Assembly (NCBI GenBank): GCA_019348365.1
Contig: JAHWJO010000001.1
Coordinates: 1-36,139 of the forward strand
Direction of reading: 5' to 3'
From: Armatimonadota bacterium
Lineage (GTDB): Bacteria; Armatimonadota; DTGP01; JAHWJO01
Length of the DNA stretch: 36,139 nucleotides
Both the position numbers and the translations under genes were made by a program. The notes under the pieces are model-generated. The model saw only the letters and a list, made by a program, of their open reading frames with translations, had not been told where the DNA came from and ran no database searches. Shown here one piece after another: positions 1,088-35,445 of this stretch; the stretch's first letter is position 1, and every line of letters starts with the position of its first letter.

Positions 1088-1208
1088 TCTTCCATGTCAT
1101 CCGACTCCCTTCCCTGTCATTCCGAGCACAGCGAGGAATCTGACCTCAAGGACGAGAGACTCTCTCCCGTACAGTCAGATCCCTCGCTGACGCTCGGGAT
1201 GACATGGG
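1088..1208. repeat. palindromic intergenic repeat, copy 1 of the family with gtcattccgagc...gaggaatc / gatccctcgc...gctcgggatgac arms
   Basis: Left arm ctgtcattccgagcacagcgaggaatctgac pairs with right arm gtcagatccctcgctgacgctcgggatgacatgg. The upstream half-site ccatgtcatccgac is duplicated. A second copy lies at 26157..26381. Confidence 0.8.
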
Positions 1209-1364
1209 AGAGTGTCAATCCGCTCCGGAAGTCAAAAGCCGAGAGGGGGTGCGTCAGTCCTGATCGATCAAAGCGGTTTCCCTACGGCGATCACCGCTCC
1301 CGGCACATAATAAAGTAAAGCGGGATCGGCCCGCTCCCCGGATAACCGTCTTGCCCCACGCCCT

Positions 1365-3437
1365 ATGTCAGATACGACTCCTCCCCTCGAAGATGAACCG
1401 ACCTTGGTGGTTCCCCCCCACGTGGCGGACCGCGCGAAAGAGCTGCGCGACTGGCTGAACTACCACAGCTACCGCTATTATGCCCTCGACGCGCCGGAGG
1501 TCTCCGATGCGGAATGGGACCGCCTTTTCCATGAATTGCTCGAACTGGAGACCCAGTACCCCGACTTCGCGACGGCGGATTCCCCCACGCAGCGGGTCGG
1601 GGCGGCCCCGGCGGACTTCCTCCCCTCGTACACCCATCGCCAGCCGATGCTCTCCCTCGGCAACGCTTTTAAGGAAGAGGACCTGATCGCGTTCGACCAG
1701 CGGATCAAGCGGATGCTGGGGATGGACCTCAATGACCCCATCGAGTACGTGGCGGAGCTGAAGATCGACGGCCTCGCCGTAAGCCTGACCTACGAGGAAG
1801 GTAGGTTCACCATCGGGGCCACGCGGGGAGACGGGACCACTGGCGAGCAGGTGACGAACAACCTCCGCACCGTCCGGTCCCTGCCCCTCTCGCTCCAGCC
1901 CGGCGACTCGCCCATCCCCCGCCTGATGGAGGTGCGCGGCGAGGTCTTCCTCACCCACGCCGAATTCGAGCGGGTGAACGCGGGCCGGGAACAAGACGGG
2001 TTGCCTCTCTTCGCCAACCCCCGGAACGCGGCAGCGGGCGGGCTCCGCCAGCTCGACCCGAAACTCACCGCGAAACGCCGCCTCAACATCTTCTGCTACG
2101 AATTGGGATACGTGGAGAACGGTCACCTCCAGACCCACTGGGAGACGCTCCAGGCGCTGAAATCGTGGGGATTCCGTGTGAACCCCCACGCCCGGCCCTG
2201 CGCGAACATTCAGGAAGTGCTGGAGATCGTCCGGGAGTGGGAGGAGAAGCGGTCCGGGCTCGATTACGAGATGGACGGGATCGTGGTGAAGGTGAACAAC
2301 CTCGCGCTCCGGTCCGAGCTGGGCCAGGTCGCGCGCTCGCCGCGCTGGGCCGTCGCCTACAAGTACCAGCCGCCGCAGGCCGCCACGCGGATCGAGGGGA
2401 TCGTGGTGCAGGTGGGGCGGACCGGCGCCCTCACGCCGGTGGCGGTGATGCAGCCGGTTCCACTGGGCGGGGTGGTGGTCCGCCGCGCCACCCTCCACAA
2501 TCAGGACGAGATCGACCGGCTGGACGTGCGGGTGGGGGATACGGTCGTCATCCAGCGCGCGGGGGAGGTCATCCCCGAGGTCGTCGAAGTGTTGAAGGAG
2601 CAGCGCCCGTCGGATACCGTACCGTTCACCATGCCCGAGCACTGCCCGGTCTGCGGCGGCGGCGTGGAGCGGCCCGAAGGCGAGGTCGTGACGCGGTGCG
2701 TCAACGTCGCATGCCCGGCGCAGCTCAAGGAGCGGATCCGGCATTTCGCCTCGCGCGGCGCGATGGACATCGAGGGGATGGGTCCCGCCCTCATCGATCA
2801 ACTGGTGGATAAAGAGTTCGTTCGAGACCCGGCGGACCTCTATTCGCTTACCGAAGAGCAGCTTGTCCCTCTGGAGCGTATGGCGAAGAAGTCGGCGGAG
2901 AACGTCGTCAACGCCCTGCAAGCGAGCAAGGACCGCCCGCTGGACCGCCTCATTTTCGGACTCGGCATCCGGCACGTCGGCGAGCACGTCGCCACCCTTC
3001 TGGCGAACCGTTTCTGCTCGATGGACACGCTGGCGAACGCCTCGGAGGAGGCCATCGCGGCCGTCCCCGGCGTCGGCCCGACCATCGCGAAGAGCGCGTA
3101 CGCCTTCTTCCAGGAGCCGCACAACCGCGAGACGCTGGAGAAGCTCCGGCAGGCCGGGGTGAAGATGGAATCCGACGGCGCGGCGGGCATCCCGGTCACG
3201 GACAGCCAGCTCTCCGGCAAATGCTTCGTCTTTACCGGCGCGCTGGAGCGAATCACCCGGCAGGACGCGGAGCGGCTGGCGGTGCAGCACGGCGGACGCG
3301 CCTCCTCCAGCGTCAGCAAAGCGACGGACTTCGTGGTGGCCGGGGAGAAGGCGGGCTCCAAGCTGGCGAAGGCGCAGCAGCTCGGCATCCCGGTGATCTC
3401 GGAAGCGGAGTTCATGGAGATGGCGGGCCTTTCCTGA
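1365..3437 (+). CDS. ligA: NAD-dependent DNA ligase LigA
   Basis: 690 aa. Contains the adenylation motif [11 protein letters not shown] (KxDG), the Cys4 zinc finger [27 protein letters not shown], an HhH region and a C-terminal BRCT-like segment ([10 protein letters not shown]...). Confidence 0.95.
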
Positions 3438-3703
3438 TGAATGGGACACGGAGCTTCGCTGCGCTCGCTACACGGAAACCCCAGGAAACCCCGGATACCC
3501 CCTGAACCCCTGACCAGATGACAAGATGAATGGGTGAGGGAGTTCATCTGCGTTCATCCGTGTTCATCTGTGATTCCATCGGGTTTTTTGTGGTCTTCGT
3601 GTCCTTCGTGTCCTTCATGGTTCAAAAGGGGTTCAGGGGGTATCCGGGGTTTCCTGGGGTTTCCGTGTAGCGAGCGCAGCGAAGCTCCGTGTCCCATTCA
3701 TCA
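3435..3703. repeat. very long perfect inverted repeat (arms 3435-3511 and 3627-3703) around a 115-nt centre carrying two tandem-repeat blocks
   Basis: By manual reverse-complementing, 3438-3510 equals the reverse complement of 3628-3700 with no mismatch, and the match extends to about 77 bp. The centre has gttcatc[t/c]g[c/t] x3 (3542-3571) and gtc(c)ttcgt-like x3 (3593-3618). The left arm starts at the ligA TGA. The right arm ends 6 nt before ATG 3710. Confidence 0.9.
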
Positions 3704-34214: not shown

Positions 34215-34433
34215 AGGCTTCCTCCTATAGAATTCTATGCTACACAACAACGCTGATTAGAGTGCGATCTCTATCGTCACATCATTACGTGGTCATGAAT
34301 TGGGCCGGATCGTCTCGATCTCCTTCCCATTTCGTAAATCCTCATGGCATCGACAACGTCTCGCTTTCGTTCAGGGGGTGCCCCGCCTCATAATACAGAA
34401 GCACTCTTACCGAATACAGAAAAGGAGACGCGC

Positions 34434-35294
34434 ATGTACCGCTGTTTGAGTCCGGGAGCCATCGGCGTGAAGGCCGACCTGGAAGAGGGGCTTCGGCTGG
34501 CGAAGCTGGGAGGCTTTGGGGGGCTGGAGGTCGGGATCGGCGACATCGCCAGGCGAATCGATGAACAGGGGCAAAGCGCCGTGCTGGACCTCTTCCGGGA
34601 AGCGGAGATCCTGCCGGGCGCGTGGGGCCTGCCGGTGGACTGGCGCACCCCCGACGAATCCAAATTCGAGGCCGACCTGGAGAAGCTGCCCCGACTCGCC
34701 GCCGCCGGGGCCGCCATCGGCTGCACCCGCACCGCGACCTGGTTCATGTCGTTCTCGGACGAGCGGAATTACGAAGAGAACACCGAATGGCACGTTCGCC
34801 GGTTCTCCCCCATCGCCCGGATCCTGGCGGACCACGGCTGCTCGCTGGGGCTGGAATTCCTCGGGCCGAAGACGATCTACGACGGGCACCACTACGAGTT
34901 CGTCCACGATATGAACGCCGCGCTGGACCTCGCCGGGCGGATCGGGCCGAACGTGGGCCTCCTCCTCGACTGCTGGCACTGGTATCACGCCGAGAACACC
35001 ACCGGGGACATCCGGAAGACCTCCCCGGACAAGATCGTTTACGTCCACGTCAACGATGCGCCCGCTGGACGCCCGAAAGAGGAGATGAAGGACAGCCCCC
35101 GATGCCTGCCGGGAGAGACGGGCGTCATCGACATCACGGCGTTCCTCCAGGCGCTCCAGGAGATCGGTTACGACGGGCCGGTCACGCCGGAGCCGTTCAG
35201 CGAGACGCTGAAGAACACCGATTCGCAGGAAGAGAAGGTGCGGATCACCGGCGCATCCATGAAGAAGATCTGGCGACAGGCGGGATTGAGCTAA
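34434..35294 (+). CDS. sugar phosphate isomerase/epimerase (xylose isomerase-like TIM barrel)
   Basis: ATG 34434 preceded by AGGAG (34423-34427). Family-typical pattern ...LGLEFLGP...LLDCWHWY...VHVNDA...PGETGVID...GYDGPVTPEPF. Confidence 0.82.
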   Translation: MYRCLSPGAIGVKADLEEGLRLAKLGGFGGLEVGIGDIARRIDEQGQSAVLDLFREAEILPGAWGLPVDWRTPDESKFEADLEKLPRLAAAGAAIGCTRTATWFMSFSDERNYEENTEWHVRRFSPIARILADHGCSLGLEFLGPKTIYDGHHYEFVHDMNAALDLAGRIGPNVGLLLDCWHWYHAENTTGDIRKTSPDKIVYVHVNDAPAGRPKEEMKDSPRCLPGETGVIDITAFLQALQEIGYDGPVTPEPFSETLKNTDSQEEKVRITGASMKKIWRQAGLS

Positions 35295-35445
35295 GGGTCG
35301 TTGGGTCGTTGGGTCGTTGGGTCGTTGGAAAGTGCCCTCCCCTATTCGGGTGTGCAAGGGGCGTACGCTCTTGGAGTATAGACGAAAATGCGGGCGTTTA
35401 GCACTGACTCCCCAACGACCCCATCACCCGACGACCCAACGACCC
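35295..35445. repeat. gggtcgtt-armed inverted-repeat element, copy 2 (same family as 13207..13337)
   Basis: Left arm gggtcgtt x4 (35295-35328). Right arm ccaacgaccccatcacccgacgacccaacgaccc (35412-35445). 30 of 34 positions complementary. Shares the two conserved core blocks with copy 1. It fills the whole gap between two convergent stops. Confidence 0.9.

Follow-up and report, generated by a model that had tools for sequence, protein, structure and literature searches.

What accounts for the hairpins with arms of short tandem repeats that occupy gene junctions along contig JAHWJO010000001.1 of an Armatimonadota bacterium (assembly GCA_019348365.1)? The original prediction, made from positions 1 to 36139 of this contig (the window, i.e. 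the whole 36,139-nt stretch of DNA analysed here), was that at least eleven junctions and two sites within priA carry elements mostly of one design, with a run of short direct repeats, a unique centre and then the reverse complement of the run. It saw in them either a process responsible for producing or preserving complementary tandem arms, or several co-resident families resembling repetitive extragenic palindromic (REP) sequences. On balance we think it probable, though well short of certain, that several co-resident, non-autonomous foldback families with simple-repeat arms are present, that they resemble REP doublets forming hairpins (REPINs) and MITEs (miniature inverted-repeat transposable elements), and that they are copied as units and probably form hairpins in mRNA. 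The elements are a real, lineage-wide feature, and a variant of known bacterial intergenic repeats rather than a new kind of system.

Copying, spread and turnover of the elements

Their identification as dispersed, copy-propagated foldback elements follows from whole-unit homology, genome-specific families, gain and loss at orthologous junctions, and nesting. The elements beginning at 13207 and 35292 (B1 and B2 in the list below) are 82% identical from outer arm end to outer arm end, with no identity beyond (core z = 26-28), and those beginning at 1083 and 26155 (A1 and A2) are 76% identical and likewise bounded at the arm ends (core z = 15.7). At the level of sequence, these comparisons show copying of the element as a whole unit. 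L241, a 20-kb contig from a relative, has four copies of a GGGTAATT/GGGTCGTT family (L241a-d) plus two other hairpins; three of the four copies have a homologous core of ~85 nt (one flipped), and the fourth has a 27-nt centre only. The 36-kb window holds two copies of family A and three of family B, and L241 four copies of its own family in 20 kb. All-against-all core alignments with shuffles revealed no core homology beyond B1/B2, A1/A2 and L241a/b/c, and the idea of one conserved core beneath fast-evolving arms was therefore rejected. The B core was found in the window only, among ~1.5 Mb of fetched loci, and its likeness to a core in another relative, L238 (GGAAAG...GTTTAG), was not significant (z ~1.5-1.9). 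The proposal that arm sequences are mostly unrelated between elements thus needs amending: the other cores are indeed dissimilar, but two pairs are homologous over arms and core, and many units are GGG-plus-T-rich variants (GGGTCGTT, GGGTGTGT, GGGCGTT, GGGTAATT). The elements of the window are as follows.

A1, 1083..1217: two to three tandem 20-21-nt units (GACTCCCTTCCATGTCATTCC), an inner hairpin module and one complementary unit (GGGATGACATGGGAGAG)
C, 3435..3703: perfect 77-nt inverted repeat (3435-3511 / 3627-3703) with a 115-nt centre, minimum free energy (mfe) -208 kcal/mol
D, 6278..6507: (AAAGTCAAAGGTCT)x2.4 14-mer array without a mirrored partner, 4 nt past the livK stop, followed by an inverted pair
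E, 8575..8658, + strand: 84-nt in-frame insertion between livG codons 2 and 3
F, 9411..9513: weak 19-nt inverted repeat over the livG stop and the livF start
G, 10228..10348: (TGTGTGGG)2.2-GTGGATGGATGAG, a 65-nt centre and the reverse complement, between livF and a small gene (10369-10605)
B1, 13207..13337: GGGTCGTT arms and B core, filling the gap from the FMN reductase stop to the rnc start
H, 13972..14106: (AAATTGGG/GAGTTGGG)x4, a 75-nt centre and the mirrored complement (97%)
I, 20771..20917: (TTGAGCT)x5.6, a 74-nt centre and a degenerate complement (81-83%), between a permease stop and the PTPS start
J, 22469..22534: plain 23-25-bp hairpin with a 16-20 nt loop and no tandem units, between the convergent folE and rhamnosidase genes
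A2, 26155..26340: family A again (second copy), with 39 nt duplicated internally
K, 31811..31863, - strand: (TTGCCTG)x4 array (31836-31863) inside priA, with a single complementary unit upstream
P, 32454..32641, - strand: hairpin with GGGTCGTT arms inside the priA 3'-DNA-binding domain, read through in frame
B2, 35292..35448: (GGGTCGTT)x4.2, B core and complement, from the TAA of one gene to the CTA (TAG) of the convergent gene

Several of these elements have internal structure of their own. The inner hairpin module of A1 (GTCATTCCGAGC..GAGGAATC) recurs in L038, L119 and L176. In D, the arms of the inverted pair (6311-6351 / 6467-6507, 115-nt spacer) each contain a palindrome, CCCCTCTCCC-N-GGGAGAGGGG, and the pair is, as judged from these arms, a REPIN-like doublet; the palindromic module is also present in L130 and L238. 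The left arm of C starts with the ligA stop TGA, its right arm ends 6 nt before the ATG (3710) of a DAO-family oxidase gene, and only the inner part of the arms is tandem (GGAAACCCC, 9-mers). E consists largely of a GGGNATC-type heptamer array (8581-8649) of ~10 units without an inverted partner, and the right arm of F is a degenerate TCATCCT 7-mer run. P has ~187 nt in place of a loop of 55 nt, which adds 44 codons net. The centre of C (3512-3626) holds a smaller hairpin, with AGATGANN / GTTCATCYGY tandem arms, plus a CTTCGTGTC x2.4 array, and it repeats the outer end of C's own arm (GATGAATGGG). The repeated arm end, together with the hairpin in the centre, suggests an element inserted into an element.

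The wider distribution was surveyed by a scan for exact matches to 2.5 GGGTCGTT units, with one genome per species, which returned at least 114 stretches. Among the matches listed, GGGTCGTT arrays are concentrated in four Armatimonadota metagenome-assembled genomes (MAGs), i.e. Chthonomonadales La1_metabat2.270 (at least 21 loci, in 29 fetched stretches), Armatimonadota SMAG_U4714 (at least 13 loci), Chthonomonadales swi_bin.234 (at least 6 loci) and a Chthonomonadaceae MAG (at least 3 loci); the other matches listed are scattered plain arrays in unrelated taxa. A survey of all the Armatimonadota loci revealed tandem-arm hairpins with further units (AGTGGTC, GGAAGCC, GAGGCGT, GTATGGGT, GGGTCAAT and GGGGCTNAA). 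Other units of the window, including TGTGTGGG, AAATTGGG and TTGAGCT, were not present in the related MAG loci, an absence that carries little weight because these loci were chosen by the GGGTCGTT pattern. One related MAG, GCA_038240635.1, has no tandem-arm hairpin in ~51 kb. In SMAG_U4714 the same arms enclose a second inverted layer (GGGGAGGGGCCTCAGAGGG), followed by further near-perfect hairpins. These nested, onion-like foldbacks are 350-480 nt long, with near-perfect arms of 100-150 nt and mfe values of -300 to -344 kcal/mol, and are composed of several recurring palindromic modules, one in the loop of another (L149 7014-7368; L144 2080-2425 and 3840-4316; L174 3841-4185; L168 2084-2518).

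Comparison of orthologous junctions, proposed as a check by the original prediction, revealed both gain and loss. Seven PriA orthologues lack ~50 residues in the 3'-DNA-binding domain and eight residues further on; the additional residues of the window PriA correspond to hairpin P and to the TTGCCTG array of K, both in frame. Five LivG orthologues lack insert E and start V/M-S-A-L-L, and in the three read as DNA the start is a GTG overlapping the livM TGA. The window livG keeps this GTGA overlap, and the 84-nt insert caused the gene caller to shorten LivG to 239 residues. Between livF and the small gene, L238 has a spacer of 9 nt, L242 one of 45 nt and the window, with G, one of 145 nt; G is thus a derived gain, and since 121 nt were gained in an ancestral spacer of 9-45 nt, its 65-nt centre cannot be old spacer sequence. 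A 9/10 match of the inner arm of G (GGATGAGGTC) to the L242 spacer was discounted, as ~0.4 such matches are expected by chance. The L242 junction orthologous to F is 36 nt long and has no repeat. In three genomes a tandem-arm hairpin lies upstream of rnc; its centre measures 73-80 nt, and 8-12 nt separate its end from the conserved MLKW start. Each genome has its own units (window, GGGTCGTT; L238, GGGCGTT; L237, GGTGTTG/A) and a different upstream gene. At the livK-livH junction, four genomes have four different repeats: D in the window; a GGGTAATT/GGGTCGTT hairpin in L241, which starts immediately 3' of the livK stop and leaves 5 nt to the livH start; a GGGTCGTT-like hairpin ending at the livH ATG in L243; and a solo (CGCTGTGCAGCCCC)x6 14-mer array upstream of livH in the more distant L242 (1-85).

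Gene order in these regions varies. In L237 (7552-7691) an aminotransferase gene is followed by one hairpin and then rnc; the window (13339-14106) has FMN reductase between them, flanked by H and B1. L238 has a histidine kinase gene upstream of rnc, and its gene for methylthioadenosine (MTA) phosphorylase is separated from mtnA by ADH and GFO genes. Breaks in synteny within this clade fall where hairpins lie. In L243 (2916-2945), a solo (AAGGCAG/AAGGATG)x4.3 array exactly fills the space from the livG stop to the next ATG, and its purine-rich units are Shine-Dalgarno-like.

The different repeats found at one junction in different genomes (upstream of rnc, and at livK-livH, including the solo 14-mer array of L242) are in accord with an alternative in which each element was born in place. 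According to this proposal, slippage-grown arrays at gene ends acquired an inverted copy across the old spacer, by fold-back or template switching, and selection or hairpin-directed repair has kept the arms complementary; every junction would then have its own units and a centre derived from the old spacer. The solo arrays that are common in the La1 MAG and L243, the perfect and thus recent-looking arms of C (77 nt) and L241a (100%), the filling of junctions to the base, and the arms and cores of C, G, H and I, which are unique in all data to hand, all agree with it. However, both the window and L241 have diverged whole copies, arms plus core, at unrelated loci; there are dozens of loci per MAG with an identical 8-mer array, which independent slippage cannot give; and the 65-nt centre of G lies within a much shorter ancestral spacer. 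Judged on these comparisons, birth in place appears contradicted for families A and B, for the L241 family and by G, and may apply to the single-copy elements; as a general account we consider it doubtful. Of the two explanations originally offered, several co-resident REP-like families is thus the one that the multi-copy arms and cores, the presence or absence at orthologous junctions and the in-frame insertions uphold.

Placement in the window and consequences for annotation

Inverted repeats in the window were defined as arms of at least 18 nt, at least 80% complementary, with a spacer of 10-200 nt, and compared with 100 dinucleotide shuffles. There are 14 inverted-repeat clusters, vs 2.8 +/- 1.7 in the shuffles (maximum 8), i.e. 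~5-fold over chance; arms reach at least 25 nt in eight clusters, whereas the longest shuffle arm averages 20 nt. Ten of the 14 clusters fall in non-coding DNA, which makes up 11% of the window. Tandem Repeats Finder located 7-10-nt arrays that coincide exactly with element arms. The expected enrichment of such elements outside coding sequence was thus borne out for the window. Assembly artefact was rejected as an explanation, since the same architecture is present in independent JGI, Logan and NCBI assemblies and in contig interiors.

The arms of the window elements span 20-77 nt, the centres 60-115 nt and the folding energies -45 to -208 kcal/mol. The single design proposed for the junction elements holds for some of them. 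Six, beginning at 10228, 13207, 13972, 20771, 35292 and 32454 (the last inside priA), have it strictly, with a tandem 7-8-nt run, a 61-80 nt centre and then the reverse complement of the run; those at 3435, 1083 and 26155 have it loosely, with only the inner arm tandem or with 20-21-nt units; those at 6278, 8581, 31836, 9418 and 22469 do not, being unpaired or solo arrays, a weak repeat or a plain hairpin. An element placed at a junction at 8573 is in fact the array 8581-8649, which lies inside livG, and of two elements proposed inside priA the one at 32454 is a hairpin, while that at 31811 is mainly a solo array. The claim that elements abut stop or start codons to the base is correct for C, B2, B1 and H: B1 and H end 1 nt from stop codons; for H the stop is that of the aminotransferase gene, and 12 nt separate the element from the FMN reductase start. 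Exact abutment on coding sequence also occurs in relatives (L241 7838 and 15943; L238 7562-7710).

In a tally of window junctions, hairpins are present at none of the three divergent (promoter) junctions, at 8-9 of the 14 co-directional ones and at two of the four convergent ones. Because the elements lie in transcribed spacers and are missing from the three divergent junctions, we regard them as parts of mRNAs. The divergent region 15323-15597 has ordinary short hairpins and no tandem-arm element.

Location downstream of stop codons, and for some elements between convergent genes (B2, J, L238c), is also what would be expected of ordinary terminators or attenuators evolved singly at each junction, and J resembles a long terminator stem. 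However, no element has a stem-plus-T-tract match in the stretch scanned (1-20000); the stems of 20-77 bp and centres of 60-115 nt are far outside terminator geometry; several elements lie inside tightly coupled operons and two within reading frames. A terminator scan of 1-20000 gave 11 sites vs 11.5 expected, none of which is an element stem. We therefore regard this explanation as very improbable. Two other assignments were rejected. GTTGGGT (GTTRRRY) and ACCCAAC (RYYYAAC) recall integron attC sites; they occur in reversed order on both strands and within housekeeping operons, and there is no integrase in the window. Searches against Rfam gave only sub-threshold matches to microRNA precursors (27-33 bits vs gathering thresholds of 77-230), which are spurious because these models score on generic long hairpins.

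Placement likewise bears on the possibility that the elements belong to a class of G-quadruplex (G4)-forming simple repeats, as in Xanthomonas and Nostoc, kept for a G4 or i-motif function in DNA or RNA, with the inverted pairing being secondary. Like the arrays of PMC4692102, the elements lie near stops and starts, avoid divergent junctions and pair convergently; they also share the preference for four units, the commonest number in the 5' arms (B2, H, L241a-c and several SMAG_U4714 elements). The array at 8581-8649 is of the GGGNATC type, and the window has 14 canonical G4 motifs, 10 of them inside elements; the motif (G3N1-7 x4) occurs in C, D, E, H, P, B1 and B2, and not in G, I or A. However, G4 motifs overall are not significantly enriched (14 vs 9.8 +/- 3.0), and TTGAGCT, the family A units and TGTGTGGG x2 cannot form a G4. 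Moreover, hairpins with the folding energies given above would out-compete G4 structures at equilibrium, and the shared cores are left unexplained. Overall, a G4-based explanation appears improbable to us.

The window has a GC content of 65% and comes from a metagenomic contig of an uncultured, soil-type Armatimonadota. The closest sequences to its PriA, MtnA and LivG are on metagenome contigs (75-87% amino-acid identity), and the relatives with names are Armatimonadota / Chthonomonadales MAGs; the source genome is an Armatimonadota of Chthonomonadales-like affiliation. Pfam scans of the window open reading frames (ORFs) identified ordinary housekeeping genes, i.e. a radical SAM gene, ligA, an FAD oxidase gene, livK-H-M-G-F, mtnA, MTA phosphorylase, rnc, FMN reductase, two aminotransferases, a second ATP-binding cassette (ABC) system, PTPS, folE, rhamnosidase, priA and a glycoside hydrolase family 4 (GH4) enzyme.

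By filling most co-directional junctions, the elements hide true start codons. The livG start is GTG 8569, overlapping the livM TGA, and not ATG 8711, so that the gene (8569-9429, + strand) was called 47 residues short. The rnc start is ATG 13196 (- strand; MLKW), not 13202, and that of FMN reductase is 13959 (- strand), its ORF over-extending through H to 14136. Elements also add 8-50 residues to essential proteins (PriA, LivG), and masking is advisable when annotating or aligning such MAGs.

Further observations concern neighbouring genes. The previously unannotated small gene at 10369-10605 (+ strand) encodes a Cys-rich (C..C...C...C) product of 78 residues that matches no Pfam family; it overlaps the convergent mtnA gene stop to stop by ~10 nt, and it is conserved immediately 3' of livF in L238 (7708-7926) and L242 (3753-3971). 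The rnc gene and the downstream MTA phosphorylase gene overlap by ~50-110 nt in different frames (window 12399-12510, L237 8369-8420, L238 2713-2761). In the DegT-family ORF (window 15598-15980), the ~126 N-terminal residues match no domain; the true start is therefore probably further downstream.

Mirrored arms, polarity and a possible role in mRNA

Left arms and reverse-complemented right arms share the same odd unit variants in the same order (L241c, L144a, H, L237). In L241c the mirrored order is GGGTAATT-GGGTCGTT-AGGTCGTT, its sister copies having GGGTAATT-GGGTCGTT-GGGTAATT; L144a has GGGTCGTA-AGGTCATA and H has AAATTGGG-GAGTTGGG mirrored. The two arms are thus kept as mirror copies. Slippage and decay also act, as is apparent from pairs of one perfect and one decayed arm with unequal unit numbers (B1, B2, L238). 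These results bear on the suggestion of a process that generates or maintains complementary arms: the mirrored variants agree with maintenance, although an independent generator is not supported, and REPINs show mirroring too.

The arms also have a polarity. The G-rich arm is 5' in 27 of 34 tandem-arm hairpins (p ~8e-4), compared with 24:21 for non-tandem inverted repeats, and in the fetched loci the G-rich run comes first in all 17 pairs with a complementary run within 300 nt. Such polarity could come from a shared origin of the unit families or, more speculatively, from selection against exposure of a C-rich, Rho-attracting arm before its partner is transcribed. It would also be explained by a lineage-specific palindrome-generating process at gene ends, without transposition, in which G-rich 7-8-nt repeats grow outward, so that the G-rich strand runs 5' to 3' away from the gene, and the opposite arm is copied or corrected by fold-back. 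The few shared cores would then reflect ectopic conversion between arrays. We see only a slim chance that this process is the correct explanation.

Returning to copied foldback families, the following sequence of events would account for the observations. Such families would have colonised the transcribed intergenic spaces of the genome, the main class having arms made of runs of 7-8-nt G3-containing units with the G-rich run 5' on both strands. Whole elements would be copied to new sites in a REPIN- or MITE-like manner that leaves no target duplication, landing between co-directional or convergent genes and occasionally in frame in tolerant gene loops, with unit number altered afterwards by slippage. 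The simplest route by which the arms may be kept as mirror copies is a single-stranded hairpin intermediate, with one arm serving as template for the other or for its correction. Once in place, elements would give long double-stranded stems in operon mRNAs, which would probably act as decay barriers or as RNase III processing sites.

REP sequences stabilise upstream mRNA, for example between malE and malF, and the Correia/nemis hairpins of Neisseria are RNase III substrates. Stems of 20-77 bp are of a kind that RNase III would naturally cleave, and they would hinder 3'-exonucleases. In this organism the gene for RNase III itself (rnc, 12399-13196) lies immediately behind B1. A hairpin or array is present after livK and before rnc in every close relative examined, which fits with retention for a role in mRNA. 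An autoregulatory rnc leader was considered as a specific role for B1: the position is conserved in three genomes, and its specificity is unproven because B1 belongs to a dispersed family and hairpins stand at most junctions. Selection at the RNA level, as judged from G-U asymmetry or sense-strand stability, was set aside, the bias not being consistent. If the elements do form mRNA hairpins, they would provide a cheap, fast-evolving means of tuning expression within operons.

A number of results weigh against copied families with a function in mRNA. No transposase or REP-associated tyrosine transposase (RAYT) gene, or Y1_Tnp domain, was found among the window proteins, and no target-site duplication or conserved target motif was detected; the flanks of B1, B2, P, G, H and L241a-d have no direct duplication, with TA possible at B2 only. 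C, G, H and I are single-copy in all available sequence, so that their mobility is extrapolated. Cores are dissimilar between genomes, as expected at this divergence, and orthology therefore cannot be separated from re-insertion. The perfect left arm and decayed right arm of B1 imply that arm correction is not continuous. Folding energies and G-U counts have no consistent sense-strand bias, so nothing points specifically to RNA-level selection, and as hairpins occupy most junctions anyway, the case for retention at livK and rnc is weakened. No insertion sequence was seen in the window or in the inspected fetched loci. The stop codons at element termini (TGA followed by TGGGT, TAA followed by GGGT, TAGGG...) appear either to belong to the terminal repeat or to result from very short ancestral spacers.

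With respect to insertion within genes, the units GGGTCGTT, TTGCCTG, TGTGTGGG and AAATTGGG are stop-free in all six frames, whereas TTGAGCT and ATCCCTG have a TGA in one frame; because 7 and 8 are not multiples of 3, arrays run through all three frames. Stop-free units may be the reason that arrays survive inside priA and livG.

Relationship to known intergenic repeats

Small non-autonomous inverted-repeat elements at gene junctions, co-transcribed with their neighbours, include Correia/nemis of Neisseria, ERIC of enterobacteria and Chunjie of Geobacter; some such MITEs are cut by RNase III or alter mRNA decay, their sequences are fixed, and most have target duplications. Rickettsia palindromic elements (RPEs) insert in frame into genes. 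To our knowledge, none of these families has arms of short tandem units. The window elements are like MITEs in having terminal inverted repeats, small size and no coding capacity, but are unlike them in the lack of a target-site duplication; like RPEs, P and E insert in frame. There is no sequence similarity to any of these MITE or RPE families.

Short tandem repeats at gene junctions are also known from cyanobacteria (STRR type) and, as TAACTGA heptamers, from Beggiatoaceae, where many families exist, are intergenic, often end at start codons, are nearly always in direct orientation and have an unexplained origin; a Beggiatoa genome has 169 direct sets and one inverted (PMC4679880). Unlike the elements described here, those direct repeats have no paired complementary arm or associated core.

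REPINs, i.e. REP doublets that form hairpins and are mobilised by RAYT transposases (Bertels & Rainey 2011, PMC3116915), share more features with the window elements, including inverted ends ~70 nt apart that form one long hairpin, extragenic location, several families per genome, similarity within and divergence between genomes, symmetric arm changes, lack of target duplication and higher-order clusters. The arms of B, G, H, I and P are, however, tandem without an internal palindrome, and only D meets the definition of a REP palindrome. The REP palindrome carries a GTAG or CGTC tag at one end (PMC3733652), whereas GTAG is absent from GGGTCGTT, TGTGTGGG, AAATTGGG and TTGAGCT arms and occurs only in GGGTCGTA variants of SMAG_U4714. 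With arms that are not palindromes, no GTAG tag and no RAYT known, we describe the elements as REPIN/MITE-like and not as members of the REPIN family.

We found no description of such elements in Armatimonadota in the literature, yet to call them an undescribed class, as had been suggested, is too strong given REPIN geometry, the inverted heptamer arrays of Xanthomonas and the GGGNATC type of the array at 8581. The closest published analogue of the arm design is the set of convergent inverted GGGAATC array pairs in Xanthomonas (PMC4692102), where we read 'convergent' as the same polarity as that of the window elements. In Xanthomonas and Nostoc, GGGAATC / GGGNATC arrays are solo or in convergent inverted pairs with stem-loop potential, with 70-75 pairs per Xanthomonas genome (Rehm et al. 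2015, PMC4692102). The Xanthomonas arrays are intergenic near stops and starts, are rare between divergent genes and prefer four units; unit number varies between strains, with the type kept, and no mobility was proposed (PMC4692102). The window shares the tandem G3 7-nt units, the intergenic location and the solo or convergent-pair arrangement, and 8581 has that very unit. It differs in having many unit types (7-, 8-, 14- and 20-mers) as opposed to one unit family per genome, in cores that travel with the arms, in nesting, in in-frame insertion into genes and in phylum.

These elements are a good system for asking how palindromic repeats spread, and their mirrored variants and G-rich-5' polarity provide a handle on how heptamer and octamer arrays arise and spread in cyanobacteria, xanthomonads and other organisms. 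On the units compared, their likeness to the G-rich heptamer class is one of class and not of identity, most of the units here being 8-mers or other sequences.

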